A stretch of DNA of 50,503 bases, the filler included, from Jimgerdemannia flammicorona (taxonomy: Eukaryota): assembly GCA_003990765.1 (NCBI GenBank). It is 2 parts of 2 records of this genome, joined end to end, with 100 filler letters (N's around TTAATTAATTAA, not from the genome) between each part and the next. Parts side by side here need not be neighbours in the genome. Positions count along the whole stretch, not along the records: positions 25,306 to 50,503 come from RBNJ01000867.1; 1 more part is not named here. One strand, 5' to 3'. The notes under the pieces are model-generated. The model did no database searches and was not told where the DNA came from. It saw only the letters and a list, made by a program, of their open reading frames with translations. A program made the translations under genes and the position numbers. Of the stretch, positions 1 through 49,314 are shown piece by piece (positions within the stretch are counted from its first letter, which is position 1; each line of letters begins with the position of its first letter).

Positions 1-119
1 ATGTAACATCATCAAAATATGACATTATCAAAATGTGATATCATTAAAATCAGTCCTTTCTCCACTACCATACCAGTTATAAGATTAGTAGACAACTTTC
101 TGAGTCTCTTTTCTATTAT

Positions 120-124
<5 letters not shown>

Positions 125-1945: not shown

Positions 1946-1967
1946 TCATTAAAATAACTTGACCTAA

Positions 1968-4237: not shown

Positions 4238-4650
4238 CTCAAGATCAAGAAGCTTCACCCAAAGGCCCAGACCTCTCAATATCAAACAGAAGGAGCCATT
4301 GGTCTTGACCTATACTCTGTCAAATAAGTTACTATTTCAGCTAAGAGCTGAACTCTGGTGCCTACAGGAATTGTAATTCAATGTCCTAAAGGATATTATA
4401 CCAGAATTGTACTGTAATCAGAACTTAGTGTCAAATACTATTTAGATATAGATACTGGTGTCATTGACCCAGACTTTCAAAGACAAGTTCAAGTTCTACT
4501 TATCAATCAGAAGAATCAAGACTACACAGTCAAGGAAGGAGACCAAGTCATGTAAATAATCCTGGAAAAAGCCAGTCAACTTAAGATTACAGAAGTCCAA
4601 AAACTTCCTGAAACCAAACAAGACCAAAAAGATTTTAGTAGCACTGATCA
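4238..4650 (+). pseudogene. dUTPase domain of A1 gag-pol
   Basis: Translates GAIGLDL...GVIDPDFQ...EGDQV*I...DFSST with in-frame stops, i.e. decayed trimeric dUTPase motifs I, III, IV and V. Confidence 0.85.
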
Positions 4651-11118: not shown

Positions 11119-12303
11119 AAGGGAATGTCATTGAAACAATTGTCCCCACAAGAGAGGTGGTGCAGTATCTAGGTATCTTCCTCTCTGTATATGGATTGGT
11201 CCTACCACAGATATGGTGGGAGAGGAGGGTAGACATTTGGGGAGAGGCTCTAAAAGGTTGGGGGGGTCATCACATCTCTCTGGTGGAGTGGGTGGTGATT
11301 CTGAATGTATACTGGTTCCCCAAGCTGTAGTATGTGGCATATCACTTAGACTTTCCTACTTGGATAGTGAAGAGGCTGATGAAACTGGCTAGAGATTGGA
11401 TTTGGGCAGGTAGAAGGGCCCAGATCAGTTGGAATACCCTTGTCAAGCCAGTGCTTAGGGGAGGCCTGGGCCTTGTTGATTTCCCTAAGCGTCTGCACTA
11501 TCTGCAAGCTTGGTAGTTGTGAAGGGCTGTTGATCTATAGGGTAGAGATTGGGTACCATTGATGAAGAAGGTGTGGGAGATGAGAGTCTCCCTCCAGGGG
11601 TCCTCAGGGGATCTACTCTCTTTGGTGGATCTGAATAGAAGCCAACAGCTATGGTATAAGGGCTTTTGGTGGGGAGTGGTCAATGGGGCACACCGGATAG
11701 GCTTGCACTGGCATAGCAATGAGGGGGAGGTGGTATGGGGTCCAGCTATGTGAAGATGGAACTGTCTGCTTCTAGGGGGAGTTCCACTCGCTGAGTTTGA
11801 CATTGGAGATAGAGTGGAGTGTCAGTGGTGAATTGGCCAGAATCTTTGGCCGAGTAGTTGGCAGGCAGTAAGGATTGGTAAGGAGTGGGACTGGGCAGGG
11901 ATCTGGTCTTGAAGTACAGAGGTGCAGCAGTGGCTTCCTCCCAAGTTCTGGGTAGTGTGGTGGTGAATGTTGTAGAGAAATATTATGTTGAACTTCTGTA
12001 CTGGGCATCTGGTGGATGGTGGTCAGCTGGATTGTAAGGAGTGTTATAATGTTAGGCAAGTTGGGAGATTTGTACAAATGCTGGAACATTGGCTGGGGGA
12101 GTGTGAGATACTGGGGGACTTTTGGATAGCTGTAGGGGACCAGCTAGGGGTTGAAAGGAGACCAGATGGAGAGAGAGGTCACTGGGAAGATCTGGAATCT
12201 AGACTTGTGGGAGGTATTGGCAATAGGTGGCTTACTGTAGGGTGGGTTGTGGCAGTGTAGGTGGGGTTAGCTGGACATTGGCTTTTTGTTTTTGAGGAGG
12301 GGT
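11119..12303 (+). mobile_element. Internal ORF2 fragment of a related L1/Tx1-type LINE subfamily
   Basis: Translates VVQYLGIFLS...YWFPKL, AYHLDFPTWIVK...GGLGL and CKEC...EHWLGEC, paralleling the ORFs at 26383-26814 and 25570-26232. Confidence 0.9.
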
Positions 12304-13012
12304 GACAGAATCAGCTGAATTCTCTGACAAATAACTGAAACAGAGAAATATGAGTGAAAATTAACCAAGCTAACCAAAAAACATAAAAATGACACCTATC
12401 ATTCAAGCTTATCATCTACATCGACATACTGTTTCTTCTCATATATTGAGTTAATAAAATCATTGACATTACAAGATATTGAGGATATAATGACAACATT
12501 AACAGGCTTATACTCCTTTTCCCAGATATGTTCCATCTGATTCTTCTATTCATCAATTAAGGATTTTTTCCATTGCTTATAACAGAAATAATACATGTTG
12601 ATATGTAGATCTAAGGTTGAAGCTATGCTGTATAATGGTGTCATCTTGCAGTAATACTTTAGAAGTTTCATACATACATTCTCAGCAGCAGTAAGCATTA
12701 TTTATAAAAAATAAAAATATATACATATTACTTCCCAATTACTTACTAAACTAGTTTCTAAATTCACAAATAAAATTACTTTCAAAATCATATATATACC
12801 TGATTAAAATGTTCACCAGTTTTATATGTATCAATGACATCTTCAAGGTGATCACATAGCTAATTAAATAGTGGGATAACAGCCACTATTGTAGAATACT
12901 TCAAAGCTAATATCATGGTTATCACTTTGGTAATAGACTTGAGAAATCGGCAAATCAATTCAAATTGTTGCTATATATCTTCAGATATATTACTCATTTT
13001 CTTATCTATGGC

Positions 13013-16000: not shown

Positions 16001-19000
16001 TGCTGAAGATCAGAATATCATCAATATATATAAGTACAAAGATATAGAGCTGATCCTTGAAGACAGTTTGCATGAGGTCTTGAAATGTTGCTGGCACATT
16101 GATAAGACCAAAGACCATAACTAGGAATTTGTAGAGTCCAAAGGGGGTCATGAAGGCAGTCTTGGATATATCTTCTGGCTTGATTCGAATTTGGTGATAC
16201 CTAGAGATGAGATCAATCTTGGTGAAGTACTTTGCATTCTTGAGAGCATCAAAGATTTGATCTATGAGTGGTAGCGGATAATGGTTCTTGACTGTTATCT
16301 TATTGAGTACTCAGTAGTCTATATACATTTGCAGAGTATTATCCTTTTTCTTGACAAATAGGACTGGGGAGCCAAAGGGTGACTTGCTTGGCTGAATGGC
16401 TCCTCACTCAATGAGTTCATTGAGTTCCTTCTTGACTGCTTCAATTTCAAGTAGAGACATGTGGTATATTTTCTTCTTAGATATAGCTGCACCAGATACC
16501 AACTTGATTTCATAGTCATGGTCTCTTGAAGGTGGTAGGCCAGGTAGTTTGTCCAGGAAGACATCTTTATACTTATTTAGTAGTAACTTGATACTTTCAC
16601 TAATTGATAGCTTCTTGTCTTCTTTCTTTGATTGGATCAGTACCACAAAGGCACAGGTAGCTTTCTTGAGGGCCTTCTTGAACTGAATTGCTGAAAGGGT
16701 GGCAATTGGGGTTCTATCTGAGTCTTGTCTGGCTTGATGGTAATATTGGCTCCATTCTGAATCAAGGTGACTTCATTTTTGGTCCAATCAATCTGAGGGT
16801 TGTGCCATATAAGCCAGGGTTTGCCTAGGATCAAGTCATAGTCTCCTAGTGGTGCTACCTCGAAATCTAAATGTTCCCAGTACTTCTGGATCTTGAGCAA
16901 TAATTGAGTCAATTAGTAAGGTGGTGCTATCTGTGGTGATAACTCCACCATTCTTACCAGCTGGTTTGGTGAGAATCTTGAGCTTATCAATGATGTTCTT
17001 GTTGATGAAGTTCCCAACAGCTCCACTGTCTATGAGAGCATCTAGTTCTTGTCCCTTGACTAGACCTTTGAAAATGAGCATTGAATTGGCTTGGTTCTCG
17101 GCTATGCTTGCAACTTTATCAGTGCTGCTAAAGTCTTTCTGATCTTGCTTAGTTGAAGACAGCTTGGTGACTTCTTTGATGACTGGTAGGGTGGCTTGCT
17201 CCAGAATGAGCTGTGCAATTCTGTCTCCTTCATTGACAGTATATGGTTAGTTCTTGTAGTTGACTAGCAGGACTTACATTTCACCTTAGAAGTCAGGGTC
17301 AATGACTCCAGTACCAACATCTAATAAGTGCTTAAAACTGAGGCCAGATCTTAGTGAAATTCTTGCATAATATTCCTTGGGGATTTTGACTGAAAGGCCA
17401 GTTGGAATGAGCCTTCTTTCATGTACCAGAATAGTGACTTGTTGTACTGCTTGAAGATCCAAACCAATGGCTCCTTCTGACTATGCTTGAGGGATCTGGG
17501 CCTTAGAGTTGACTCACATGAAATTGAGTATAACTTCTTGTTCAACTGGTTGACCTTGAGTGGCTTTGGACAGGACCAGGATCCTCTTTGGTTCAGCAGT
17601 TTTCTTGGGACATTTAGTTGCAATGTGACCAGGCTGATGGCAAAAGAAGCAGGTTCCAGCCTTCTTGAGGCACTCATTTTCCTCAGATGTAAGCTTACCT
17701 TTCTTGTTCTTGTCGATGGTATCTAGGTCCATGGGGGCAGGTCCAACAGTTCTGACTTTGGGTTCCTCCCTTCTGTGGTTGTTGTTGTTGTTGAAAGGCA
17801 GTCTCTTCTGTTCAAAGTAGTGACCATAGGTGATGACATCAAATCTATCAGCAATTTTCATTACTGTATCTAGGTCCTTGGATTCTTTTAGTTCAATATG
17901 AACTTAGGTTTGACCTTTCAGGCCTTGGATGTACTTGTCAACCTTCTTATCTTCAGTGACATATAGTAGTTCTAGTAGGATTGACAGGAATTATATATTA
18001 TATGCTTGCACAGACTTGAGTTGTTTGACATTTATCAGATGGTCTCATGTGGCCTTGGTGCTGTTGACTGGTTTGAATTGACCTTGAATAGCATCAGAGA
18101 ATTCACCCCAGGTCTTGATTTGATCAGAGAATCTGGTATTCTAGACATGATTTCACCACCAAATAATAGCATTTCCTTAGAGGAGTGTGGTAGTGAATTG
18201 GACTAGTGTTGCTTTTTCCAAATTGGTCAGTTCTCTATATTACTCCAATTGGAAAAGCTAGGTATCAGTAGACAGTCCTCCTCTTTGACCATCAAAGGTA
18301 TCAAGCTTCTGAGACCTAATAGTGACTGCTGTTAGATGTATTGATGTTGGTAGAGGTGTAGAGGTATGAGCAGAGGCCTTGCTTTTCTTTCTTTCTATGC
18401 ATTTTTGAAGTTGAGCAATCTGAGCTAATGTAGTCTGCAATAGACTCTTGATGGCTCATTTGACTGAGTAGGGCTTTGCTGTTCCTCTTCTTCTTGCTGA
18501 TTGTATGAGGCATTGCCTGGACTATAGATACTGTATAAAGGGTTACATCTGTTGTCCTCCATAATATTATGACTGATATCTTGAGAGGTGTCTTGATAAG
18601 GCTAGGTGTAACTTAACTGCTGCTACCAAGTGTAACAGTTCTAGTTTCTAAATGAGGAAGTGACTAGTTCTGGTAGTTCTAAGTAGCTCAAAGAGATACT
18701 TAAAGATTCAAGTATTCTCAAAGGATTTCTGGGAGAAAATATTCTGAGACTTTATTCATGAGAACAAATGGGATATTTATATAAGATCTGAAAGAAGGAT
18801 CTGGAAGGATCTGAGAAATCAAAGGAAAATGCTAAGAGGAAAGTTCTCAGCAAAGATAATGAATGATGACAAATAAAGTTCTACAAGTTTCCAAGATATT
18901 CAGTGACTAGCTAAATAAGTACTAGAGGATGCTTGGTGCTAAGAAAGGATTTCTAAGCATTCAGAAAGTACTGGAAGGTCATAGAATATTGAAGACAAAG

Positions 19001-25057: not shown

Positions 25058-25094
<37 letters not shown>

Positions 25095-25205
25095 GTCACT
25101 TGGACGTCCCTTTATTATGCACTCTCTATAGATAATACATAAATGCCTCCATCCACCTTAACCGATGCCCCTTGGGTCCCCCTCCCCACCCACCCCACCC
25201 CCCTG
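25058..25205 (-). mobile_element. 3' terminus (poly(A), AATAAA, G-rich tract) of another LINE copy running into the gap
   Basis: Poly(T) followed by ATAGTCACTTGGAC...TTTATT, the same terminus as 25306 and 125. Confidence 0.8.
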
Positions 25206-25305
25206 NNNNNNNNNNNNNNNNNNNNNNNNNNNNNNNNNNNNNNNNNNNNTTAATTAATTAANNNNNNNNNNNNNNNNNNNNNNNNNNNNNNNNNNNNNNN
25301 NNNNN
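25206..25305. other. Artificial scaffold gap: N44-TTAATTAATTAA-N44
   Basis: Exactly 100 bp with a six-frame stop linker in the middle. Confidence 0.95.
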
Positions 25306-25479
25306 TTTTTTTTTTTTTTTTTTATAGTTACTTGGACTCTGCCATTTATTACCCGTCTATTAATAAATATACAGTTCACCCTCCCCCTACCCAATCCCCA
25401 TAGGGGTGCCTCTCCCCCTACTCATATGAACAAAGACCACTTTCTCACCCACAACACCAACCCTCCCCCCACTCTGCCT

Positions 25480-28400
25480 ATAGATTTGTTCTACCAAATG
25501 ACACCTGCGACCTCCCTTCAACCCCTAATCAAGCCACCAGCCCATCAAGGTGTCTTCCATAAGGCTCCGCTATCTCAGCAACCTGACCTTGGAGCCAAGT
25601 TTTCTCCCATCCTTAAAAACAAATAACCAGTGACTGGCCAGCCCTACCCAAATAGCCAAGGCCCAACCCAACATCAGCCACTCCTTCCCCACCCCCCCCA
25701 CCAGTCTTTCCCTTAAATCCTCCCAATGCCCCCACACTTCAGCTCTCCTACCCACTACTCCCAGATGCTCCCCAATGTTCTGCCAAAAGGTTCCAAGTAC
25801 CTCACACTCTCCTAGCCAATGTTCAGATATCTGTACATATCCCCCTTCCTGCCCTACATTATAACACTCTTCACAGTCGAAGCAGCCTCCCTCAATAAGG
25901 TGACCAGAGTGAAAGTTGAGCATGATATTTTGCCTCAGCATATACCACCAGACCACCCAATACTTCAGCAGCAGCCACCTCCTCACCTTGGCACTCCAGG
26001 CCCAAATGCTATGCCAGTCCCACTCCTCGCCGATTCCTACTCTCTGCCAACTGCTAGGCCACTGATCCTGGCCTGGTCCCCATTGGCATTTGATCCCATC
26101 CTCAATGTCAAACTCAATCAAGAGAATACTGCCTAGTAATACTCGGTCCCATCTCCACATCACTGGGTCCCAAGCCTCCTCCCCTTCATTCCCCTGCCAC
26201 CTAATTCCAATGCGGTGCACCCCCTCTGCCACTCCTCACCAGAAGCCTCTGAATCGCAATTGTCCAGAATTCTGAAGGCCCACAAGTGCTAGGAGATCAC
26301 CAGTCGAACCCCTTGGAGAGGACCTCATCTCCCAGACCTTCTGCAGTAGGGGAACCCAACCACTCCCTCCCAACTCCACCGCTCACTTCAGCCACCATAC
26401 TCGCAAACAGTGCAACCTCTTAGGAAAGTCAACCAGCCCAAGTCCCCCACTCGCCACTGGTAAGGACAAGACCTCCCAGCTGATCTGACTCCGCCTTCCA
26501 GCCCAGATCCACCCCTTGGCCAGCTTCATCAAATGCTTTACCACCCAAGCTGGGAAGTCCAGATGATAAGCCAGATACCACACCTTTGGCAGCCAATAGA
26601 TATTCAGAATTGAAACGTGTCCTGCCAGAGACAATTGGCAGCCCCCCCAACTCCGCAGGGCCTCCTCCCAAATGCCAACCTGCTGCTCCCACCAAAGTCT
26701 GGGCAGAACTGACCCATACACTGACAGGTAGATACCCAAGTACCTCACCACCTCACCAGCAGGGATAATTATACCAATAATCTCCCTGCCCACCAGACTA
26801 TTGCCTAACACCATTGTTTCACACTTATGCCAATTAAGTCTAGTCTCAGAGTTTGCCTCATACTACTCCACTGTCTCCTTGAGCTTCTCAACATCCGTAA
26901 TTGATTTCAGACTGACCACCATGTCATCTGCAAATGCCCCTACTTTCCACCTGATGCCAAAGATAGAGAGCCCTACTATCTTCTGCCAGATTCTGTCCAT
27001 GAAGGGATTCAGAGACAAAGCATACAAAATGGGGGATAGTGGGTCCCCCTGGGGCACCCCCCTACCCAGGGAAAATGCCACCCCTCTATGTCCATTACAT
27101 ATGAGTGCTGCCCTACTCCCTTCCAGTAGGCTGATCATGGCGGCCCTGAACTGTTGTGGGACCCCAATCCTATCCAGAACTTTTGCCAGCCAGACCTGTC
27201 GCACTCAGTCATAAGCCTTCTCTTGGTTCAAAAAGACCAGACACCCATCCAGTCCACTGGCTTGAACCCCTTCAATAATGCTGTACACCCATGCTGTATC
27301 ATCCCTGATGAGCCAGCCTCCCACAAAGCCCCGCTGCTCCTCACTCAAGACATGCTGGGCCACCTTTTGCAACCTTGCAACCACCACTTTGGTAACCAAC
27401 TTTCTGTCTATATCCAACAGCATAATCGGCCTCCAGTTCTTCCAGTCCTCTCAGCCGCCTTTGTTCTTATAAAGCAATGTCACCAGCCCTAGATCCTGTT
27501 CTCCCACCTATCTCCCTGTCTGTAGAATCCAATTCCACAGTGCCGTCATCTCTCCCAGTACTCCAGGGACTCCCACCATCCTTTTCCAGAAGTCCCAGGG
27601 CAGACCATCCTCCCCAGGTGCCGTACCCAAGGTTGTTGTGGCAAGAACCTGGTGGATCTCCTCCTCTAGTACCAGCAGTACTAAATCACCCAACCCATCT
27701 GCTCGGGTAGGGTACCAATTCTCCAATGCTCGATCAATGTCCTCAGCATCTGCCCCCCCCTCCTCCTTACTCCACAATCTACTCCAATGCTCCTTTAATG
27801 ATCCAAGAATATCTTGTACCCTATGCACCAATATGCCATCAGCATTAAACACCCCCTCCCACCTTTGCTGCACCCTTCTTGCCTGAAGGGCTCTCGTAAG
27901 AAACTTTGAGGGCCACTCTCCTTCCTCCAGTCCCTGCCAACGAAGTCTCGCTGCCAGACCCTGGACCCTTGCCTCTTCCTCATCCTGCAGTACCTGTTGT
28001 AGTTCCGCCACCTCCATTCGTAACCTTATCAATCACCAGTCCTCCTCCCCCTCTAATGTCGCCAGTCTCGCCCAGTCCTCCAAGAGTCTAGAAAGTCTAC
28101 TAGATGTCCACTGCACCTGCCTCCTCTTCTGTCTCCCAGCCTCCATACCAGCCTCACTCCAGAAGGTCCTGGCCATCTCCTTCATCCTCATCCACTGAAT
28201 ATCCACTGGGACCCCACACTGCCTCCAGCACTCCACCTGCAATTGAACTACTTCAGTCCATTTATTCCACCAGATCTTATCATCTAGTAAGGAGGAATTG
28301 AGGTGCCAATGTCCAGGCCCATCCCCACTTCCCCCAAAATGTCCCTGCCCTAAAAGCCCCAATGATCTGACCAAGGGCACCATTCTGCCTCCAGCGACTT

Positions 28401-29040
28401 CCAAACATCCAAGCCCCAGCACTGGCTGTCAGAATCCAATCAATCCTTGTCCCCAAGCCCCCGGCCCAGTGTGTGTACACCCTCCTATTCCCCCAGCATT
28501 CCCTACCCACATCTATCAGAGCACTCAGTCTTTCCACTTCCTCCCATGCCTCCAGTCCTCCACTCCGACCCACAGCCCCTCGTCCTCCATCAGTTCTATC
28601 CCTCAATACATCGTGGACCATATTGAAGTCCCCACCGAACACATCCACCCCAACATCTGCAAGAATTCCACTCTCCTGTAGGCCTGTCACCCACTCCACC
28701 CACTCACCCTGCACCGCAGGGCAATAACAAGAGCCCACTATGACAGGCTCCCAACCTGTGCATATCCACTCTCCCCAGACCAATCTATCTCCCCAGCTCT
28801 GCACATCCTGTACCTTCCCTCTGCCTTTCCGCACCAGAATTCCAACCTTGCCCTTCCAGACTGCCTCACCTCCCCACTCCTTCATCCATTCCAATCTATC
28901 TAAGTCATCCTCACACCTGACATCCTGCAAGAGGAAGAGATCAGCCTCCAATTCCTTCAGCCAAGTAAAAATGTTCCTACATTGATAAGCCCCCTGTAAC
29001 CCATTCACATTCAGGAAAAAATGTTGGTTGTACTATTCAT
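25480..29040 (-). pseudogene. LINE ORF2 (APE endonuclease - reverse transcriptase - Cys/His domain), with stops and frameshifts
   Basis: Consecutive ORF pieces 28280-29008, 28033-28422, 27508-28032, 27205-27423, 26863-27204, 26383-26814 and 25570-26232. Confidence 0.9.
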
Positions 29041-29049
29041 AAGGAAGAT

Positions 29050-31105
29050 TATATAGTTTCAGATGAGTCCTTTACTGCTCCATGTCCACTTTCTCCTATG
29101 CCCTATCCAGGTCGTGCTCAGCAATAACTTCTTCTTTCTTGGCCCTCTTAGCCTCCAATTCAGCCAGGATCTCAGCCATCTCCCCATCCTTCTTTTCCTC
29201 AAACTCCTCATGGTACTCTATACAAGCCTCCTGCCAGAGCTGCAGTCCATGCTGCTTAGTCCAACAGTGCGCAGCCTGCTCACCCGCCATGACTGCCAGA
29301 GTAGCTTCCCTCTCCTTATCCACCTCATACCCCTCTTCCTCCAAGTATACTACCAGAATTTCTGCCTTCAATGCTGCCACCACTCCATCACCCTGCAGGA
29401 TCCTCGTCCAATGCTCATCGCTCATCACCCGGAGGTCAACTTCCCCCAGCTCCTCTGCCACCAAGTTGTTCATCATCCGGTACACCCAAAGCAAGTTTCC
29501 CACCTCCTTCCCTCCTGGGGTCGCTGGTCTCCCCCCATCCAACATTGTAGTGTCAGCCCCTATACTCACCAACTCATTCCATCCCTCCTCTGGGACATCC
29601 ACCAATTCCTCTTCCCCAGTCACCTCTACCAATCCCCCCTTTGCCACATTTGGGACTCCAAAGCATACCTGCTGAGTACCGTGCATCGGCACATCCTCCA
29701 CCACTCTACGGCTTGCCACCGGACCCCTTCTGATAAGGGGAGAGGGTGAAGATGAATCCTCCCAGGTTTCCTCCCAAACCTCGAGTGTGCCATCTTCATA
29801 TGGATTCCTGCTCGGCCCCTTCCCAGCCTCCATCTGCCCCTCCTCCTCATTCTTTCCACTCTCAGCAGCCCAGACACTCACCTCAGCACCTCCCGTGGTT
29901 GCACCATCACTTGCCTTCCTCATCGCCCCTGCCCCCATTTTCACCAAAAATTTCCTCTGCCTTCTGCATCCTTGAGACCTCTCCCACACCTCCTTGTTGA
30001 TGCGAACTCTCTTCCCTCCAACCACCTCAAGATGCCTTGCCTCCTCGAATGCCTTCCAAGCCTTCAACCTCCTCTCCACCACCCCACTCAACTCCTTCAG
30101 CACTTCCAGCAAATCCTCCTCCTCCTCCTCGCTCCCCTTTACTCTCGTCACCTTACACAAGAAAGCCCCTCACACTATCACTGAGGGCCAGTCCCAAGCC
30201 TTCCCAGCAGCCTCCCTCCCGGCCAACCGAATCCTGACATCAACATCCCCTGTCTGGAGGGAGGTTCCTTCCCACACTCTGAACCCAATATCGACCACCT
30301 CCCCATACTCTGCCATGATCTCCTCAACCCTCTTCCTCATCTCTACAGCAGTAACTGTGGGAACTCCTTTTACAAGAAGCTGTACTACTCTTGGGTCCCA
30401 CCTCAGGCATCTCATCATCAGTATGCATACCTCACACACTTTCATTCCAGCCTTCAAAGCCTCCTCCAGTGGTCCAGCCTCCTCAAATCCCACCTCTACC
30501 CCTTCTAGGCCCTTCAGGAACTTAACAGATGCTGCACCACTCATCTGCTTCATGATCAGCCCCAGAACTATTTTTGCCATCACCACTAAGCCCTGGAAAC
30601 ACATCGTGACTGCAAATTACGAGATCGACTTTTTGAGTAACAGAGCCACCGCCAGTCCCATTACACCATCCACCAGGTCCCCAGGCCTTGTGCCCTTCCC
30701 ACTGCTCAGCTCATCATCAGCAGTCCCATCTAGATTTTTTTCCAGATTGCCCATCACACCTCCATCAGCAGTCCTCACCTCAGCCGCAACCCCCCCAGCT
30801 CCACCCCTATGGCCCTCCAGAGAGGTACCCCCAAGAGGTTGCTGTCTTGTGGCCCTCACTGGCACCTTTTCCCCCCTCAGCCAGCTCTCCAGTCCAGCTC
30901 CCTGCTGACCCCCCTTCACCTTCTCTGCAAAACTCACTCCGCCAGACCCTTGACCCCCAGCTCCGCCCCCTCCTCCACCACATCCTCCTGCCAGCAGGCC
31001 CCTCATACTTCCCCCCAGGCTGGGGCCTCTCCCTACTTGCTGCCATTCGAATGCTCCAGGGCCACCCTGCCCAGTATGCACCTCAGAATGCTTGTTGGTT
31101 GCCAT
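29050..31105 (-). pseudogene. LINE ORF1 (Gly-rich N-terminus, possible RRM-like segment, acidic coiled-coil C-terminus), disrupted
   Basis: ATG at 31105 (MATNKH...); ORF pieces 30617-31105, 30170-30604 and 29096-30160 lie directly upstream of ORF2. Confidence 0.75.
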
Positions 31106-32211
31106 GATACTAGTAGCTTGTCTCCAGAAACTGTGTCGAAAGTGTTGAGTGCAGCCAAGACACCTGAAATGGGTAGCCTCGGGCCTCCTGACCCCCCCTG
31201 ACGACTGGGGCCCAACCCCGCTGACCACCAAAAGAAGCTGATAGTGACACCTACCACCTAACTACGCCGCACCAATCAAAAGGCCCCACTGAAGCAGCAC
31301 CTGCCCCAGCTCTGATGACCACCCCCAGCCTGGCACCCTACTGGTTCACCATTATCGCCCTTCCTCCTATCTGTGACGGCCATCTCCCCTCTCATCCCGA
31401 CAACACCCGAAAAACAGTCACCTACGCCAGAACCGTGCTCGCCAGGAAGCTCACCAAAGCCAGAGGGCCCCACCACAGGCACCGAGGACCTGCAGGTAAC
31501 CTACACTGAGCACTTGACACCCAAGGTCGGCCGACTCCCTATGTAGCCCAAGACACACCGAGACAACTCCTTGTTGGTGACGGCAAAAGGAAGAAGGCGC
31601 CGCACCAAAACGGGTATACCCCAGATGTAGCCGAAGGCACCAGAATCCATGAAAAAGTGGAGGAAGTACCGATCCGACACCAATAAAGGGGCAACTCATC
31701 ACCATTGCCCTCCTCCCACCATATCCCTGCAGGCACAGCAAACCAACCCGAGGTAGAGGGGGTAATAATAGGGGAAAGGGGACTCGGAAGGTCACCTACC
31801 AAACCTTATAACTGGTAAGGTAGCGGAGAAAGGAGCTAGTGCTACATCCATATCTAGCATAGTCTAGATAGCCCCTCACTAGTATAAATACCCCCTCCCC
31901 CAGACCTCAGAATCTCAGACTTAAACAATTTGAATACAACTCCTGAGCACTTCCCCACAATATCCCTTCATACAACTACTCCTAGTATAGCAATATCATG
32001 AATAGCGAATAAACCTATTTAATAACCCACAAACTACTCTTAAGTAAATCTGCTCCCTGTTAGATCCCACTTCTAACCCTGTCATGAAATTTCCTAATTG
32101 GGTATTGTCTGCAGCAATACGCCAATTCAACTAAGCTGGTCTTAGTTTCTTGAACTTCCTGAAATACGGAAAATCCTGAACATCCAGAACTAGTCTGAAA
32201 AAGGACTTTGG

Positions 32212-35200
32212 TTGAGACATCAATTCAATCTTGAAATCAATAAGCGTAGAGGACATACTCCATATGAAATTGATCTTGACCTTAAGAAAACAGTATTTCA
32301 GAATATCCAGAACTTTCAGAAAACCCTTCCAGAACTACGTAACGGTTACCCAAAAAAGCAACCCTCTTACAACTTGGTAGCAGCAGTTTACAATCCAATT
32401 CCGCTTCAAGACGCTTCCTCACCCTGCTACAAACCCCTCTGCGAATTCCTACAAGTTGGTATAAAGCCCAACCTCTGAACTGGAATTTATCCTGCACCAT
32501 CTGACAATCTGGAGAGAATTGAACCTGACATACAAGGACAATTTGACCTCCACACCTGTAACAAGTGGGACAAACTTCACTCAAAGAAAGAAGTACTCCG
32601 ATTAAACCAGCAAATAGGCAAAATCCTATTCACTGAACCCCTTGCACTACACCCAGCAAGTCAAGATGAAGAAGGTCTTATAGAAGCCTTCTTTACTCTC
32701 CTCAATAAGAGTTTTATCAGCTCCACAAATCCGAGTGACCTAGGACAACCAGCAGCAGTCTTTTTAGCCTTAGTTCCTCATGAAGCCCAAGCCTCAGTAG
32801 CCAAGTGGCTCAACTCTACTGACTTTCACCATACCAGGACCAAAACTGTATTATACTACTAATTCCAGAACAGTAAGGCCCACTATATTCTTAAAGAAGA
32901 AGCAAGAGAAACCCTTCATCAACTACCTGACCCTGAACCAGAAGCAGGCCCTGCTACAGCTCTACCTGAATCAGAAACCAACACTGAACCAGAACTTGAC
33001 TTTGAATTAAGTCTATCTGAAATCAGATATATAACTGATTTCATCTACTTTGACACTGAGCAAACTCAATTCCATGGAGACCAAACTATAGAGGAGGAGG
33101 AGTATCTCAGTGAATTCGATCCCGGATACACTACCGAAGGAGATACACCTCCATCAGGCCAGAACATACCTACACAGCAACAAACAGCTATCTATCAAGC
33201 CCACTCCAGACCCACAACTACTACTCCAGCAACTTATACAGACTCAAAGAACACCCTCACACTCTGCATCAGTACCTCAAGTAGTACCAGTAACACCACT
33301 ACCAGTAGTCCAACCACCTCCAGTAAACAATTTGGCAAACCAACAGATTCTAGACCTCACAGCCCAGGTAGCCATAATGGCAGCAACCATTACTGCCTTA
33401 GCCGAACAAACCCAACCTACCAAAAATCTGAGCCTACCTACCTTCAATGATACTGCACAAGAAGTTCAAAGCTTCATTAGTATAGTTGATACCAACTTTG
33501 AAGTCAATCAATGGACTAATGAGTGAGTTGCTGACCATCTTCTGACAAACAATCAAGACCACACTCTGGAACAACTCTTTGCTACTACAGCCTATGTCCA
33601 CCAAGTTGTTATATTCTTCTGAGGACCTGTCGAAGAATGGTGGTGAACTCTTCCTGAAAAACTCCTTATATGGGATATCCAACCTGCAGTAGTTGCTCAG
33701 AATGCAGCAAACAATGCCCCAGGATATGGAGCCCATCCTGCAGCCTCTGGACTCAAACAACTCATGATTGCTCAATACCGCAGCGAAACCATGATTGCTG
33801 AATCTCAAGTAAAACTCTGCAATCTCAAATTCAATGTACATGGCAAAGAAGAATTCGAAACCTTCTGTACAAAACTCGAATCACTCCTGAATATCATTGG
33901 CCTAGAATACATTGCCAATGACAAAGCACGAAATGGTATAAGAGCAGACCATTTATTCAATGTCCTGCCGGAATGGCTTACTAGAAAAATCCGAGAACAA
34001 GGCTGCTCAGTTGGTTGTGATCACCAACAATGGTGCCTAGCAAGAATCAAGACTATGGTCAAGCGAATCCTAACAGCTGGACCAATGCTGCCCTGAAGAC
34101 AATTCAACAACAAGGAAAAGACTTGGACCAAGAAAGAAGAACCCAAGCATGAAGCATCCCAAGCTCCCTCCACATCCACCTTATGGACACCCAGAAATCA
34201 TGAACCCACTCAGCTGAGTACCTTTAAGAAACTCACTGAAGGAGAAAGGAATGAACTCCGAAGAAGTAGAGCATACTTCTATTGCTGAAAGACAGGATAC
34301 ATAGCCAGTACCTGCCCTAACCGAAAACCCCGAACAGCAACAAGAGCAACAGTTACCATGCTGCACCACCTAAACAACCTGACTACCAGAATACTAGACT
34401 TTGTCAAGTTAAGATAAACTGCGAAGGCCCCAACCAAAGGAAGTCAAATAGCAGCTGGATATGACCTGTATGCAGCTGAAGAAGCTACAGTTTCTAACTA
34501 AGAAGTCAAGCAAGTCTACACAGAAATCAGTATCCAAATTCCTGAAGGACATATTGGAAGAATATGCTGTCGCAGCAGCCTAGCACTGAAAGGACTCTCA
34601 GTAGAAGGAGGAGTCATTGATGAGGATTATACAGACGAAATTATTGTCCTCATCCGAAACCACAGTTGGACACCCTTCAAGATCCCCATAGGTTTCTACA
34701 TTGCCCAGATCCTATTCAAAAAAATTGAGTCAACTCTGACAGTCAAAGAGGTCCCTGAACTACTGCCCACCATCTGAGGATCCAAAGGATTTGGCTCATC
34801 AAAAAAGGCCCCAGTCTAACCTACTATGAACAAAGAAGAACAATTCTACAAGAAAATTGAAGACGGATATATACCAAGTGACTGATGCCCTCATGGCATT
34901 GTAATGTACTCTTCCCGAATGATTGATGATTTCTTCTCTTGTGTCAATGAACTGGCTCAAAGAAGAACCAACAGAAGGAAAGCTCCCACAACTGAAATCA
35001 CTACTATTAGATCAGACAAACTGCTTACACTTAAAGCTTTTGTTAATCAAGCACCAGTCAAGATTATGATTGACAGCGGTACTTCCAGGAATTTCATCAA
35101 TGAAGAAACAGCCAACAGACTCAAGGTCTTCACCTCTCCAGTACAACAAACTCAAGCAGTTGCTACAGCTGATGGAACCTCACATGTCATTAGCAAAGAA

Positions 35201-38200
35201 GTCCACAACCTATCCTTCCGAATTGGTAACTATCGAGTACATATTACTCTCCAAATTGTACCACTTCCTGACAATGAGATCATTCTTGAAACACCATGAT
35301 TGAACCAAGAGAACCCCATGATCGATTGGGTAAACCATTCTCTGACCATTAAGAAAGGATGCCATAATTTCAAACTGCAAGGTGAAAAGGACCCACTCAA
35401 CTCTAGCAACCCTGGACCAAAGATCACTCATATCAACAAGCTACAACTTAAGAAATTAGCCAAGAAATGCCCTTTCTTTGCTATCTCTATCTGCCTATCC
35501 AAAGGAGAACCTGAGAACTCTGAAGAAGACTTTTCCAAAGTCAACAGCTGTATTAGACCCCTACTCCAGAAATTCTGAGACATATTCCCAAAGAAGCTTC
35601 CGAAAGGCCTACCTCCTAAACGAGCAGTAGACCATGCGATCAAGACCATTCCAGATGTCAAGCCAGCCTTCAAGTCAATCTACCACATGTCTCTGAGAGA
35701 AATAGATGCACTCAAGAAGGAAATAAATGAACTCCTAGAACAAGGATTCATCAGACCCAGTATATCACCCTATGGTGCACCAGTCCTCTTTGTTGTAAAG
35801 AAAGAAGAAGACCTGCGAATGTATATTGATTACCGAGACCTTAATGAACAGACCATCAAGAACTGTTGCCCACTATCAAGAATCGATGAAATATTCGATA
35901 GGCTTACCAACTCACAATTCATGAGCTCTTTTGATCTATAAAATGGTTACTGGCAAATTGCTATGAAAGAAGAAGACATCTACAAGACAGTCTTCCAAAC
36001 CCACTATGGACACTTCAAATTCCTAGTTATGTCCTTTGGCTTAACTAATGCTCCAGCAACCTTCCAGACCCTGATGAATACCATCCTATACCCCTATCTA
36101 GACAAATTTGTTGTTGTCTATATTGATGACATCCTAGTCTTCAGCAAAACTCTGGAGGAACATCTCAAACATCTTGAACTAGTACTACTGAAACTGCGAG
36201 AAAACCGACTCTTCACAAAACTCAGCAAATGCGAATTTCTCCTGAAAGAAATTCAATTTCTTGGACACATTGTCACACCAAATGGAATCAAAGTGGACCT
36301 CAGCAAAATCTCCACAATCAAAGATTGGCCCAGACCTAAGAAGCTGAAAGACCTCCAGTCATTCCTAGGACTAGCAAATTATTACAGGCGATTTATTGCT
36401 AACTTCACCAAGATTGCTACTGCCCTGACTCAAATGACCAAGCATAGCAAGAAAGAGGAACAGCCCTGGACCACGAAACAAGAGAAAGACTTCAACAACC
36501 TTGTAAATTGGGGACCCAAACAAGATACTGCCTTTCAAGCACTAAAGGATGCCCTGATAACTACCCCAGTACTTCAAGCAGCAAATTCTGCTCTGCCATA
36601 TAAAGTTACTACTGATGCCTCTGACCTAGCTCTTGGAGCAGTACTCATGCAAGAAGGACACTCTGTGGCCTATCACTCCCGCAAGTTCAATGATGCTGAA
36701 ATTAACTACACAACTCACAAGAAGGAAATGCTAGCCATTGTAGACACTCTGATCAAATGGCGACCCTACCTAGAAGGAGCACACTTCACTATATTGACTG
36801 ACCACAAGTCATTAGTTAACATCAAGACCCAGGCTACTCTTTCTTGAAAGCAAGCCAGATGGATGAAAGTCCTCACCAACTTTGACTATGAAATCCAGTA
36901 CCGCTCTGGCAAGGAAAACATTGTTGCCGATGCAATCTCCAGACCACTAATTGAAGAAGTTATCCAAACCCTCACCTTGGTTACAAACTCCATCATGGAA
37001 CAAATTATCACAGTATGTGCTGATGATAAGGAAGCTCAAGTACTTCGAGAAATCCTAAATAGTGACAATGCTGATAAGCATACCCAATATCATCAATACC
37101 AACTCAAGGACAATGCTATCTACTACAAGAATAGATTGTATGTTCCAAACAACCGAGACCTCCGAAGGACTATCCTATTCGAATGTTATGATGCACCTAT
37201 AGCTGGACATTTAGGATTTAACAAATGCTATGAAGTTATCTTCTGAAACTTCTATTGGCCCCACATAGAAGATCAGCTAAAAACCTACATTACTTCCTGT
37301 GATGCCTGCCAACGCAATAAGTCCTCAACACTAGCAAAACCTGGCCTACTCCACCCTATCCCGGTACCATCTGCAAATTGGGAACAAATCTCTATAGACT
37401 TCATTATACAACTACCCTGAACAAAGAATAGGAAGGATGCAATTGTTATCTTCATAGACTATCTCAGCAAACAGGCCTACTTTGTGCTAACTACTACTAC
37501 TGCAATAGCACCAGACATAGCCATACTCTTGTTTGACAATATCTTCCGCTATCATGGTCTTCCTAAGATTATTGTTAGTGACCAAGATCCAAAATTTACC
37601 AGCCATTTTTAGAAAGCCCTCCATGCACACCTTGGAACAAAACTTGCACTATCCACAGCCTTTCACCCTGAAACCAATGGCCAAACCGAAAGAATGAACC
37701 AAACTCTGGAACAAATACTAAGAAACTATGTTTCCTACAGACAAGATGATTGGTATGAACACCTCACTGCAGTTGAGTTTGCCTATAACAATAGCAAGCA
37801 AGCCTCTCTTGGAATGACCCCATTCTTTGCCAACACTGGACAAAACCCAAACACTTCTCTGACACTTATCTGAACTACTGAAGAACTCTCCACAGTTGAA
37901 GCTATTGAAGAATTCCTGCTCCAAATGCATAATCTAAGCTAGATCGCAATTGAGAATTTATCACGAGCTCAAGAACAACAGTCACAGTATATTAACCAAC
38001 ACCACCAAGAAGAAACCTTTGATATTGGAGAAAAAGTTCTACTAGATATCTGAGGATACTGAGTTGACAATCTTAAGCATAGACCATCTACAAAACTGAA
38101 CAGTAAGTTCATAGGACCATTTGAAGTCATTGCATAAGTCTCTCCAACCTCTTACAAATTGATGCTACCAGACATCATTAAGATCCACCCAGTCTTCAAT

Positions 38201-38860: not shown

Positions 38861-40345
38861 TGTAAGAGGGTTGCTTTTTAGGGTAACCGTTACGTAGTTC
38901 TGGAAGGGTTTTCTGGAAGTTCTGGATATTCTGGAAGACCGTTTTCTTATGGTCAAGATCAATTTCGTATGGAGTACGTCCTCTATGCTTATTGATTTCA
39001 AGATCGGGTTGACGTCTCAACCAGAGTCCTTTTTCGGACTAGTTCTAGATGTTCAGGATTTTCCGTATTTCAGGAAGTTCAAGAAACTAAGACCAGCTTA
39101 GTTGAATTGGCATATCGCTGCAGACAATACCCAATTAGGAAATTTCGTGACGGGGTTAGGAGTGGGACCTAACGGGGAGTGGATTTACTTAAGAGTGGTT
39201 TGTGGGTTATGAAATAGGTTTATTCGCTATTCATGATATTGCTATACTAGGAGTAGTTGTATGAAGGGGTATTGTGGGGAAGTACTCAGGAGTTGTGTTC
39301 GGATTGTTCAAGTCTGAGATTCTGAGGTCTGGGGGAGGGGGTATTTATACTAGTGAGGGGCTATCTGGACTATACTAAATATGGATATAGCACTTAGTGC
39401 TTTGCTGAGTCGGAATGCAGTCATGTAGTACAATAGTGATCTGACAGGTCAAGAGATCGTCTGACTGCTGAGTCAGTTCACAGTCACGTCGTATAAGGTT
39501 AATCTATCTATACTATGACTGCTAGACTATTTATAGGTTTAGGCACTATCTGGTTAGTCCTTGATGACATCACTATTGATGACATCATCGCTGGCAAAGT
39601 CTGAGTAGTTTTCTGACTTCTGACATCATCAGTTTCAAGGTGTCGTCACTTCTATCTCTTGTAAGATTAAGGCTGTCCTTAGTGGCGGTGGTTGTACAAG
39701 GATAACAGGTCTTGGTTCTCTTTTTTTTTGGTCTGCTGGCACATTTGCGAGGACTGGCCATTCTCGTCTAGGGCGAGGGCTCCCAATGTCGCAGCTGGGG
39801 GTTCGAACCTCTCGGAAATGATATTTTCTGTAATCCGAGACAATTTCTAGTAGTAATATCTGTCACATGGATGGCTTGAGATTGGTTTCGATGTTGTCGG
39901 CTTTCTTGAGTTCAGATGAAGTGTCCGTCACTCTCCGACGGAGATGACATAGATAGAGCGAACAGAGTTGTTCAAATGCGTTTTGCTTCTGCTAAGTAAT
40001 GAGGTCTTGTATAGTCACAGTGTGTCTTGGTCTTGAGTTGATAAGTGCAGTTCGTGAACCTTTTGGTAGATGAGATAGGGTTCTTCTTGTCTCAATTTGA
40101 GTTTGGTACTTTTCGGTTTCTTTTTGTAATAGTACAGTACACCAAACTAGTTATAGCAGTTCAGAATCAGTCTTATGGTTGTAGTACTTCTTCTAGTATT
40201 CTTGTATCTTGGCGGTGGGTTCTCGTACTTGCTGGCATATTTCGTGTAACCAGATGATCTCTTGTTTTGTGGTCTCGCATGTGGTTTCCAATTTAGTTCT
40301 GAGGATGCCATGCGATTTTGGTGGCTTGGAGGTTGTGTGCTTACA
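38861..40345 (-). mobile_element. Solo LTR of a family-B variant (1485 bp) inserted in reverse orientation 36 bp upstream of the B2 3' LTR
   Basis: TG...CA ends. 38861-39590 is the reverse complement of ~41685-42412, and 40270-40345 matches the LTR start. TSD CTCCG/CTCTG (38856-38860, 40346-40350). Confidence 0.9.
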
Positions 40346-40381: not shown

Positions 40382-42412
40382 TGTAAGTACACAACCTCCA
40401 AGCCACTGAAATCACATGTGACCTTCAAACAAATCTGAAAATCACCTGCTTGATCATAAAGCTGAGTCAAACTGAAGTCACAGCACACAAAGCTGAGTCA
40501 ATATGAAGTCATGGAACACAAGATTCACACAAATGGAATCTTACCAATCAGGACCAAATGCATATATATTGAGTACCAAGACACGTCAAAATAGAGAACC
40601 AAAACAAACAATAACTATAACTTCCAAACACACAAACATGACCACTGAGATCTACAACTGTATCTGCGCTGACATTTGGAATGCCATTGTCAACCAAGCT
40701 ACACCCCCTCTGCCCTTCATGAATATCTATAGTCTAGCACCCCTCTACTTCATAGAAGCCCAATGGAATGCTCTGAACATGCTTAACGAGACCCACCAGA
40801 TCAGACAAATCTCAAGCTACTACTAGATTGGCTGCCTCCTGGAAGACATGGTCGAACACCACTATAACACAGACATTACCCAGATGTCTCAACACCAGAA
40901 ACTCATCGTCCGCAAATACAGAGAACTCTTCTATGAGTACAGTATCTTTATTTCTTGCCTCTGAGTCACTACCAGCGAAATGGTTGCTACCCTGTCCTAT
41001 GGCCAAATCGACAATATGATATAAGAACTCAACCATAAGTACCTCAAGTATGTTGAAACTATAGACAGAACCTTCCCACACCCCAATGATCATATCCTGC
41101 AAATGCCCCAAGTCAGATATACCATGAAAGATGTCTACGATATAATTCACTTCGATGAAGATGAAGTAGAAGACAATGATCTCTCTGACACTGACATGAC
41201 CTCAAGCCAAGGATCTCTACCAACCCTGATCACTCCACCAACCTTGCTGATGAACTTACAATAGTTCATAACCACCTACAAGACCTATTGGGACAATGAC
41301 CACTGGCATGAATACCAACCTCTATTCACCCCTAATTACTTCAACTACAATGAAGAGACCAGAGAACACAACTTATATCTCCAGACAACCCTCAAGATCG
41401 AACCAACCACTCAACCACCCGAGTATGAGTGACATGAACCACAGCCACCAGCTTACTACAACCCTGCGACCCATAGTACTGTAACTTATAAAAGGTACGC
41501 AGACAGCGAATCCAATGAAAGTGAAGATAATGCACCCCTCCTTCGCCCACCAACACCTTATCCAGTATATGAGACAGATAATGCAATCCTGTGAGATAGT
41601 GATGAAGTTCTGATGTATTATTACCTCAGCAAACAAGGAGAAGTAATCCGCAAACCACTTTTCCTAGATAACTACTTCATCAGAGATGATGTCATCGATG
41701 GTGATGTCATCGAAGACTACCCAGACAGTGCCTAAACCTATAAAAAACTTAGCAGTCAAAGTATAATTAAATTAGTCTTGTATGACATGACTGTGAACTG
41801 ACTCAGCAGTCAAGTGATCTCTTGATATGTTAGATCACACTTGTACTACGTGACTGCATTCCGACTCAGCAAGGCACTTAGTGCTATATCTATATCTAAC
41901 ATAGTCCAGATAGTCCCTCACTAGTATAAATACCCCCTCCCCCAGACCTCAGAATCTCAGACTTGAACAATCCAAACACAACTCCTGAGTACTTCCCCAT
42001 AATATCCCTTCACACAACTACTTCTAGTATAGCAATATCATGAATAGCGAATAAACTTATTTAATAATCCACAAACTACTCTTAAGTAAATCTGCTCCCT
42101 GTTAGGTCCCACTCCTAACCCTATCACGAAATTTCCTAATTGGGTATTGTCTGCAGCAATACATCCAATTCAACTAAGCTGGTCTTAGTTTTTTGAACTT
42201 CCTGAAATATGGAAAATTCTGAACATCCAGAACTAGTCCGAAAAAGGACTTTGGTTGAGACGTCAACCCAATCTTGAAATCAATAAGCATAGAGGATGTA
42301 CTCTATACGAAATTGATCTTGACCTTAAGAAAACAGTCTTTCAGAATCCAGAACTTCCAGAAACCTCTTCCAGAACTATGTAATAGTTACCCAAAAAAGC
42401 AACCCTCTTATA
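40382..42412 (+). repeat. 3' LTR of B2 (2031 bp); TATA-like TATAAATA at 41925, AATAAA at 42050
   Basis: Follows the PPT and is collinear with 7064-9104. Its 3' part matches 31837-32371. It ends TA (CA in other copies). Confidence 0.92.
40638..41735 (+). pseudogene. ~365-codon ORF of unknown function inside U3 of the family-B LTR
   Basis: ATG 40638 to TAA 41735 in one frame (MTTEIYNCICADIWNAIV...DDVIDGDVIEDYPDSA) with six internal stops and no frameshift. Confidence 0.75.
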
Positions 42413-46334: not shown

Positions 46335-47450
46335 GATAGTCGGATTCCTGGGTGAGGATATTTTGGTCACGTCCAAAGGCGATCTCCAGGCACTTGTCCA
46401 AGGAACCGTTTTCCATGATATTTTGGTCACGTCCAAATTTTGAAGTCACGTCGACACGTCGACCAAATTGTGTCTGCTTCTTTGCTGACTGCCTACCCCT
46501 ATATTTAGAGGCAAGATTTTGAAAGTTTATAACTTTTAAAATCATAATAGCTTTTAAAAAAAAATTTACCAATAATTTTTTATATAATAATTTTATCTTA
46601 GGTAAAAATTTTATAAATAAAAAAATTTTTTTTTTTTTTAAACAAATTGAGATATATTTTTAACAGAAAAACAAGTTTCAAAAAATCATTTTTTTCAAAC
46701 CTTAATTTGTCTGCTAAATGATTTTAAAAGATGATCTTATTTACAGTCAAAGAGATAGGTGTGCCTAGCTGAACAGGAGTTCAGGCAAAGTAACTATTAT
46801 ATATTGTATAACTACTAATTCTCTCTAATCTATATTTCTATTAAGTTTAAATTTTATAACTCATGGATATTTTGTCAATTTTCTATATAAATATTAATCT
46901 AAATTCAATGAAAATTATATTTTCAGAAAGTATTTAATCAGGCAAATCCAAGAAAAATAGTTTTATTAAATTTGGATATATATTTATAGAGATATAAAAA
47001 TTTTTATTAGAGATTTATAATATATTTAAAATATAATAATAATTTGAATTTAATTGGATTTATTTTTTAATAATATTATTAATATATCTCAGACAATTTT
47101 ATTTATTCAATCTATTTATTATATAAAATATTTACAAATAATCAAATTTATAAACTAATTCACTAGTAATATCTTTACTAATAATTAAGTCATCAAAAGT
47201 TAAATCATCTAATTCACTAATATTACTATCAAAATAATCTTCTGATTCTGAATCTAAATTAATAATTAAAGAATTGGCTTTAACTTCTTTTTTAGTAAGA
47301 ATATTATGTTTTATAACTAAATCTTTTTTATTTTATAAATTCTTTTAATAAGATTATTTCAAACTTCTAAAGTAACTTTTATAAAGTCTTCTTTAATATA
47401 GTTTTAACCTTTTGAAAGTCCTTTTCATTATTAATATCTGCAACATATTC

Positions 47451-48629
47451 TTTTTTTTTTTTTTTTTGTTTTTTGTCTTTTTTTTCCCCTAGTTTTTTTT
47501 GTTTTATAGACTCTATGTCCCACAGATTTTTATTGGAAGGGAACCTAGACTATATAGACCAAAACCCTCCCCCACCACCCATCAAGTACTGCCAGGTGTA
47601 GCAGGGCAAAGTACCCTGCATCTCATTCTGCACACCATACTCTCCCTACCACCAGGGGAAATCCAGCCATATGTCAATGACCAAAAGCATATATCTGAGA
47701 ACCTAATATATATACAAGGCCATGCTCGAGCCAAATAGAATAGCCCCTGCCACCCCAAAGAGAATGACAGGCAAAGAAAAAACCCTCATCAAAGTATAAT
47801 ATAGTGGGTAGGACCTGGTTCTCCCAGTCAAGGTGAGTAGAGGACTTACATGTGAGGTAGGAGAAGACCCCCAATACTCCACTACTCAAGCCTGTAGGCC
47901 TTGATCACATTGCCATGTCAGCTCCTGGTTCCAGTTGAGTACAGCCAAGACACCTGAAATGGGTAGCCTCAGGCCCCCCGACCCCCCCTGACGACCGGGG
48001 CCCAACCTCATGAATTGCCAAAAGAAGCCAAGAGTGACATCTATCACCTAACCACACCGCACCAATCAAAAGGCCCCACCGAAGCAGCACCTGCTTCAGC
48101 TCCGATGACCACCCCCTGTATAGCACCCTATTGGTTCACTGTAATCACCCTTCCTCCTATCTGTGATGGCTATCTCCCCTCCCATCCCAACATCACCTGA
48201 AAAACAGTCACCTATACCAGAACTGCACTTGCTGGGAAGCTCGCCAAAGCCAGAGGGCCCCACCACAGGCACTAAGGACCTGCAGGTAACCTACACTGAG
48301 CACTTGATGTCCAAGGTCAGCCGACTCCCTATATAGCCCGAGACACACCGAGACAGCTCCTTGTTAGCAATGGCAAAAGGAAGAAGGCACCACACCAAAA
48401 CAAGTATACTCCAGATGCAGCTGAAGGCACCAGAATCTGCAAAAAAGTAGAGGAAGCACCGATCCAACACTGAGAAAGGGGCAACTCATCACCATTGCCC
48501 TCCTCCCACTATGCCCCTATAGGCACAGCAAATCAACCTGAGGTAGAGGGGGTAAAAATAGGGGAAAGGAGACTTGGAAGGTTGTCTACCAAACCCTGTA
48601 ATCAGTAAGGTAGCAGAGAAAAGAGCCTG
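47451..48629 (-). mobile_element. Complete non-autonomous retroelement: LINE 5' UTR + unrelated ~430-bp 3' part + poly(A)
   Basis: 47934-48626 is collinear with 31144-31836. Poly(T)-rich tail at 47451-47505. TSD TCTGCAAYATATTC at 47437-47450 and 48630-48643. Confidence 0.92.
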
Positions 48630-49314
48630 TCTGCAATATATTCTTTAGTAATTCTCTATACTTCTTTAATTAGATTAAATATTGAATGATATAATAGAAT
48701 TTAATAAACTTCAAATTTATAAGTTTTTAAAATTTCTTCTATTGCTAAAACATCTTTAAATTTCTAAGATTCTAATTAACAAATAGAATAAATATCTTGT
48801 TTTGTATTTCCATTAAAGGTATTTTCATCTATTAGCTCAGATTTATATTTTTTCATCTAGTTAATTAGCTCTTACTTTTTTAACTTTGAAATTCCACCTT
48901 AAAGTCCTTCAACTCACTATGATAAGCTATATTATCTATATAAATAAATATATCTTTTTTCACTCTTTCTTATGAGTACTTGAGTAGAATTTGATTGTAT
49001 AATATTTTAAAATATTTTTCAAATATTTTAGTATTTATATTATCATGATAATTACCAGTACTTAAATTTGCTTCAAAATTAAAAAATCTCCAATCTATCT
49101 ATCTGCTCTACTACAATATATAATCACTTAGTAGCATTCTTGTATTTCTCTTCATATAAAATCTTCCAAGTGAAATCATGATTGTCTACTAATATAAAAT
49201 TGATTTATCTAATCATATTTTAATTTCACTAGACTCTTTAGTCTTTTCATAATGTTAAAGATATTTTTTATACTATTGTTTGATTGTGAAAATTAATAGT
49301 CTTTAATACCTTTT

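Follow-up and report, generated by a model that had tools for sequence, protein, structure and literature searches.

Two insertions of a non-coding chimeric retroposon that shares its head with the 5′ UTR of an L1-like LINE in Jimgerdemannia flammicorona

What kind of mobile element begins with almost the whole 5′ untranslated region (UTR) of a LINE and continues with sequence that the LINE does not contain? The question is raised by an insertion (copy A) in the Jimgerdemannia flammicorona genome (assembly GCA_003990765.1). The window, by which we mean the whole stretch of DNA analysed, comprises 50,503 nucleotides in two parts joined by 100 filler letters, with positions 25,306 to 50,503 taken from RBNJ01000867.1. 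A blastn comparison of the region with the window matched 47934-48626 to 31144-31836 (693 nt, 85.9% identity) in the same orientation; both the LINE and copy A thus lie on the minus strand (Table 1). The shared stretch runs from the first base of the LINE to 38 nt upstream of the ORF1 ATG (31105, taken as the first in-frame ATG) and covers ~95% of the 731-nt LINE 5′ UTR; an initial annotation had put this match at ~690 bp, in good agreement. It stops at the junction CTCAAC|, where copy A reads …GTACTCAAC|TGGAACC… and continues for ~430 nt to an AATAAA and an A-rich tail. The insertion is flanked by a 14-bp target-site duplication (TSD), TCTGCAA[C/T]ATATTC, which is 13/14 identical between its copies and extendable by TTT, indicating a T/AAAG site on the sense strand. 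Every part of the layout first proposed for copy A was found. Three extra nucleotides, CAG in the sense direction (48627-48629), lie between the TSD and the first LINE-homologous base and could be an untemplated addition at the 5′ junction. Apparent homology past the junction, including CATGGCAA shared at the LINE ATG, was no better than chance (for copy A, 179/1000 and 225/2000 shuffles), and an origin of the junction by splicing is unlikely, as the LINE continues after it with ACTTTC, not GT.

We detected no coding capacity in copy A. Its longest ATG-initiated ORF has 43 amino acids, and its ORFs are not kept in the second copy (copy B). A protein search returned no homologue candidate for a sense ORF of 76 amino acids, and an antisense ORF of 81 amino acids had 0 matches among 1.84 billion representative proteins.

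Table 1 Positions of the two element copies and the partner LINE along the window
Feature	Position	Strand	Remarks
Copy A, whole element	47451-48629	minus	~1.2 kb, without genes
Copy A TSD, copy adjoining poly(A) tail (TCTGCAACATATTC on + strand)	47437-47450	.	13/14 identical to 48630-48643
Copy A TSD, 5′ copy (TCTGCAATATATTC)	48630-48643	.	Read from sequence
Copy A A-rich tail (interrupted poly(A), 57 nt)	47451-47507	minus	TRF: period-1 T run 47451-47485
Copy A AATAAA polyadenylation signal	47529-47534	minus	Element position 1096
Copy A 3′ half, non-coding, unrelated to LINE	47508-47933	minus	Only copy B matches
Copy A head (LINE 5′ UTR nt 1-693)	47934-48629	minus	Homology up to 48626
Copy B TSD, 5′ copy (ATCATTAAAATCA)	40-52	.	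12/13 identical to 1945-1957
Copy B head, first ~70 nt	54-124	+	nhmmer 54-117, E=2.2e-6
LINE 3′ fragment nested in copy B, 5′-truncated	125-816	minus	Poly(T) 125-159, LINE-type tail
Copy B head, remainder, to junction (…ACTTAAC|)	817-1448	+	blastn, nhmmer
Copy B 3′ half	1449-1928	+	AATAAA at 1899-1904
Copy B poly(A) tail, 17-nt A run	1929-1945	+	
Copy B TSD, 3′ copy (ATCATTAAAATAA)	1945-1957	.	
Partner LINE, decayed	25058-31836	minus	ORF1 29099-31105; ORF2 25573-29032 (APE + RT)
Partner LINE 5′ UTR, part common to copies A and B	31144-31836	minus	Whole UTR 31106-31836
Partner LINE 3′ region		minus	3′ UTR with tail T1 ending ~25306; two 44-N runs; second tail T2 25058-25205

The initial annotation had listed copy B as an older copy at 817-1945 with the same junction. 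Its junction and relative age were borne out. Its start was misplaced, at 817 and not at 54, because a LINE fragment is nested in the head, and once the piece at 54-124 is counted copy B is full length. The nested insertion lies at head position ~75 and has its own TSD of ~9 bp (TTATT[T/C]TAC, at 116-124 / 817-825). LINE positions 25058-25105 match its positions 126-173 at 95.8%, and it has a weak match to the end of ORF2. Insertion of a LINE fragment with its own TSD into copy B indicates that the LINE was still active after copy B had arrived.

Copy B carries a 13-bp TSD (ATCATTAAAAT[C/A]A, 12/13 identical), and its junction at 1448/1449 is that of copy A, identical to the base. Thus, the 50.5 kb hold two full-length copies with differing flanks, each with its own TSD and both with the same junction, and one chimera has retrotransposed twice, independently, to give copies A and B. 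The first interpretation, of an amplified family and not a one-off deletion, agrees with the presence of this junction at two unrelated loci. Only two copies are known, and template-jump chimeric retrogenes do exist in fungi (Magnaporthe, PMC2104539), so one might suppose that there is no family here and that the copies are one-off chimeric retrocopies without relation to each other, or arose when a single insertion was segmentally duplicated. We regard this as highly improbable, given that the 3′ halves are homologous throughout (nhmmer E 7.6e-145 and 6.5e-142), that the junctions coincide to the base, and that similarity stops at the element ends, beyond which both TSDs and flanks differ.

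The order of arrival can be approached through the substitutions. Copy B is heavily hypermutated in a RIP-like manner: 143 of its 171 private head changes are G>A or C>T, the changes at C are biased by context (CpA 59/85, CpG 9/16, CpC 52/111, CpT 19/92), and across 54-1945, nested fragment included, the o/e values are 0.00 for CpG and 1.3 for TpA. Transversions in the head are less affected by hypermutation. They number 7/620 between copy A and the LINE (with 78 transitions and 0 gaps in the 620 aligned nt), 21/619 between copies A and B, and 22/619 between copy B and the LINE, which makes copy B the oldest copy and places the head of copy A very close to that of the LINE. The site patterns leave open whether copy A groups with copy B or with the LINE (four transversions shared by copies A and B against the LINE, three shared by copy B and the LINE against copy A). 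Between copies A and B, transversions amount to 27/427 in the 3′ half versus 21/619 in the head (Fisher p=0.034, a contrast that could instead come from base composition), and gap columns to 59 versus 11. This difference weakly suggests that the head has been constrained in the replicating lineage, or exchanged with the LINE.

Where does the 3′ half come from? With word-7 blastn, the 3′ part (47451-47933) matched nothing in the window except copy B, and an nhmmer profile of both copies found no third match (next best E=3). Against the whole LINE on both strands, in a purine/pyrimidine alphabet that is blind to transitions, 50/50 and 14/50 shuffles equalled or exceeded the score of the 3′ half. 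The window holds three LINE 3′ ends of differing ages, T1 (ending ~25306), T2 (25058-25205) and T3 (the fragment nested in copy B), and these resemble each other (0-1/2000 shuffles scoring at least as high; 0/2000 for T3 versus T1), as do the tails of copies A and B (0/1000 and 0/2000). The LINE's own 3′ UTR was not found as the 3′ part of the element, either among these three ends or in the whole LINE.

These comparisons bear on the possibility that the element is an ordinary internal-deletion derivative, its 3′ half being the 3′ UTR of an autonomous LINE subfamily outside the window, as in RIME/ingi and bipartite RTEs. Bipartite derivatives are described as common (PMC5786205), and there is a faint likeness in the right place: in global alignments of the last 80 nt with the LINE tails, 28/2000 (A-T1), 57/2000 (A-T3) and 56/2000 (B-T3) shuffles scored at least as high, the collinear items being a G-run, AATAAA, AGAGTC and TATA. 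The resemblance is marginal, as the other three of the six comparisons gave 246, 620 and 696/2000, and in a 100-nt local test the four comparisons with LINE tails gave 57-706/1000. Beyond that margin, none of the three mutually similar LINE 3′ ends aligns with the 3′ half. Composition differs too: G and purines are strongly enriched in the LINE ORFs and 3′ UTR, whose GC skew is +0.42 to +0.56, whereas the 3′ half has a GC of 0.46 and a GC skew of +0.18, and both halves of copy A contain 31-32% T and 47-49% purines. An origin by internal deletion therefore seems to us distinctly unlikely. The check for another LINE 3′ UTR that the initial annotation had proposed, run against the three LINE 3′ ends in the window, was accordingly negative or marginal, and the last 80 nt may contain a short LINE-type 3′ signal. 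The flanks of the insertions are AT-rich (GC 0.25-0.28).

In public collections, the 3′-half pattern and a junction-proximal head pattern had 0 exact matches in metagenome contigs, and a conserved head pattern had 0 exact matches in genome contigs and viral contigs. A look-up in public sequencing runs listed three soil-metagenome DNA runs from two studies with small shares (0.14, 0.05 and 0.05), one added run at 0.00, and no RNA run; we draw no conclusion from these shares.

To be copied, a non-coding element needs an enzyme, for which the partner LINE is the candidate in the window. Pfam domains were matched in 3 of the 10 LINE frame pieces scanned: an Exo_endo_phos domain at 28283-29032 (E=1.3e-8) and an RVT_1 domain in two pieces (E=4.5e-7 and 1.1e-10). 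With the ORF2 protein read through as a query (X at its seven stops), 97 proteins were found at E<=1e-5; the best was only 30% identical, and the protein collection searched contains no close relative. Many of these relatives carry PF00078, PF03372 and PF13966, and the few with names are LINE-1-like reverse transcriptases from plants, corals and fungi. Because of these domains (APE and RT, with zf-RVT in the relatives) and its LINE-1-like relatives, we call the partner LINE L1-like. Two further LINE copies in the window, making three in all, are 5′-truncated.

Is the element, then, a SINE, as the 'SINE-like' label of the initial annotation implied? The label does not hold: the element starts with the LINE 5′ UTR where a SINE would have an internal Pol III promoter of tRNA, 7SL or 5S RNA origin, and the sense strand of copy A contains 11 runs of T>=4, which argues against Pol III transcription. 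ARAGORN found no tRNA gene in the element, and Rfam scans yielded no family at gathering thresholds, with one sub-threshold lncRNA match (E=0.12). Structure and ribozymes had been named early as points worth checking; no ribozyme family, including HDV-like ones (Pr77/L1TcRz), appeared in the Rfam scans of the head, and predicted folding was unremarkable (z-scores of -1.20 for the 3′ half and +1.88 for the head). A central VNTR domain is likewise missing: TRF reported the poly-T run of copy A as its only tandem repeat, so the element is not SVA-like. What both copies do show are the hallmarks of target-primed reverse transcription (TPRT), with a 57-nt A-rich tail and 14-bp TSD in copy A and a 17-nt A run and 13-bp TSD in copy B. 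Combined with the absence of coding capacity and the presence of a LINE with APE and RT in the same genome, this is the profile of a non-autonomous retroposon. The core of the initial description, a TSD-flanked, polyadenylated chimera of the LINE 5′ UTR and a non-coding 3′ half unrelated to the LINE, is upheld.

On balance, we consider it probable that copies A and B are full-length insertions of one family of ~1.15-kb, Pol II-type, non-coding poly(A) retroposons that carry the LINE 5′ UTR as their head and are copied in trans. A single template switch in the course of LINE reverse transcription would most likely have produced the chimera, the enzyme moving from the 3′ end of a different polyadenylated RNA to the LINE RNA, at a point 38 nt upstream of ORF1. 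Such jumps are reported to make chimeric retrogenes during fungal LINE reverse transcription in Magnaporthe (PMC2104539). The LINE-derived head would carry the internal Pol II promoter of the LINE, so that copies could be transcribed from their own first nucleotide. We treat the head as a putative promoter because the 5′ starts of copy A, copy B and the LINE agree within 2-3 nt, and its better conservation in transversions and gaps fits constraint on the head. The transcript would be polyadenylated at its own AATAAA and copied in trans, by TPRT at A-rich sites, by the LINE ORF2 protein, which would recognise it by the poly(A) tail, with no need of a 3′ end specific to the LINE. A precedent for the shared promoter is Pr77 of L1Tc/NARTc, reported as an internal Pol II promoter common to the LINE and its parasite (PMC1874656).

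The same relationship can be read in the opposite direction, with the retroposon being older and the LINE having captured its first 693 nt as a new 5′ UTR (5′ switching); the shared head would then be an acquisition by the LINE and not mimicry by a parasite. The two halves of copy A are indeed alike in composition (GC skew of +0.19 in the head and +0.18 in the 3′ half) and unlike the LINE ORFs and 3′ UTR, and copy B, which already has the junction, is older than the sole full-length LINE seen (21-22 versus 7 transversions). Replacement of 5′ UTRs is also documented, for RTE LINEs of Nicotiana (bioRxiv 10.1101/2022.11.04.512097). However, composition is a weak argument, the site patterns (4 versus 3 transversions) do not settle the tree, none of the LINE copies seen has a different 5′ UTR (the two others in the window being 5′-truncated), and a retroposon independent of the LINE would have needed its own promoter all the same. 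We judge this direction unlikely. Quite improbable, in our estimate, is a further scenario in which the 693-nt head behaves as a promoter cassette that moves between the L1-like LINE and the non-coding retroposon, either the LINE having renewed its 5′ UTR from the retroposon or the parasite repeatedly re-acquiring the current LINE head. Such exchange would explain why the heads of copy A and the LINE differ by so few transversions in comparison with the 3′ halves of copies A and B (7/620 versus 27/427).

Returning to the family copied in trans that we favour, its closest parallel is NARTc/L1Tc of Trypanosoma cruzi. As described in PMC1874656, NARTc is non-coding and polyadenylated and has its 5′ end in common with the LINE from the first nucleotide, as has our element: the first 77 bp are 100% identical to L1Tc, the remainder is 54% similar, only 13 nt are conserved at the 3′ end, and most copies are full length. 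The marginal likeness of the last 80 nt of our element to LINE tails recalls those 13 nucleotides. RIME/ingi and SIDER/DIRE, with Pr77 as hallmark, are grouped with this pair (see also PMC5814959 for the trypanosomatid elements). The differences are in scale and equipment. The shared head has 77 nt in NARTc/L1Tc and 693 nt, or ~95% of the UTR, in our element; their LINE belongs to the ingi clade, whereas the partner here is L1-like; Pr77 is an internal Pol II promoter according to the same source, whereas the present head is only a putative one; and the NARTc/L1Tc head contains an HDV-like ribozyme of a type that Rfam did not find in ours.

Among fungi, the Eg-R1/Egh24 'SINE-like' retroposons of Blumeria graminis resemble the element in being non-autonomous and polyadenylated and in having no Pol III A/B boxes. 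PMC6022598 presents Eg-R1 as one of eight non-LTR elements with a conserved 5′ region, and as Pol II-transcribed. The likeness is one of described features; the host is an ascomycete, and Eg-R1 is described as encoding a peptide, ROPIP1, whereas our element has no comparable ORF.

Pieces of LINE 5′ UTRs are reported to be common in non-autonomous elements (PMC5786205), and RIME, RTE-N2_Lch, MAR4 and WALLSI3, as presented there, retain a LINE's 5′ UTR or its outermost 5′ end, as our element does. Their 3′ part is given as the LINE's own 3′ UTR, whereas that of our element matches none of the three in the window. The SVA elements of hominoids are also Pol II-type, composite, non-coding and polyadenylated with their own AATAAA, and depend on L1 in trans (PMC3287187). 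They contain VNTR, Alu-like and SINE-R parts, which our element is without. To our knowledge, the SVA head is not an L1 5′ UTR. A literature search for described LINE or SINE families of the Endogonales gave no title on the subject among the 10 of 29 matches listed.

The design itself, a LINE head from the first nucleotide, then unrelated sequence and poly(A), is already known from NARTc/L1Tc, RIME/ingi and Eg-R1. Borrowing the 5′ promoter head of a LINE instead of its tail, which the initial annotation had inferred, thus has precedents in NARTc/L1Tc and Eg-R1. The host and the LINE clade are new for this design, the head is much longer than in NARTc/L1Tc, and the element opens no new category. 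If the reading we favour is right, the L1-like LINE of an early-diverging fungus supports hitch-hikers of Pol II type, which borrow its head and not its tail; trypanosomatids provide the best documentation of this design, and powdery mildew a hint of it. Should the head prove to be a promoter, the LINE and the element form a natural experiment on what is needed in cis for transcription as opposed to reverse transcription. In annotation, we recommend masking the family as a non-autonomous non-LTR element rather than scoring it as a truncated LINE.

The surroundings of the partner LINE are themselves rearranged. Its 5′ end adjoins a Gypsy LTR (31837-32369) that is 92-93% identical to the other LTR copies (38861-39593, 41681-42410 and 8362-9104). 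No clean TSD was found for the LINE because the sequence to the left of its tail is not that LTR, and the 3′ side of the LINE has probably undergone a deletion or rearrangement. Two LINE tails stand in tandem at 25058-25330, where …AATAAA…GTCCAAGTRACTATA plus poly(A) occurs twice, with N runs of 44 bases each (25206-25249 and 25262-25305) around TTAATTAATTA between them; a second LINE 3′ copy, very short and located at the first tail, is the probable explanation. An older 5′-truncated copy of the LINE on the plus strand (11130-12305, 67% identical to 25603-26778) ends near the end of ORF2, without 3′ UTR or tail. Most of the window is occupied by decayed Gypsy-type elements (3700-7000, 14400-18050 and 32400-37800) with dUTPase, aspartyl protease, RT-RNase H and integrase zinc-binding domains.
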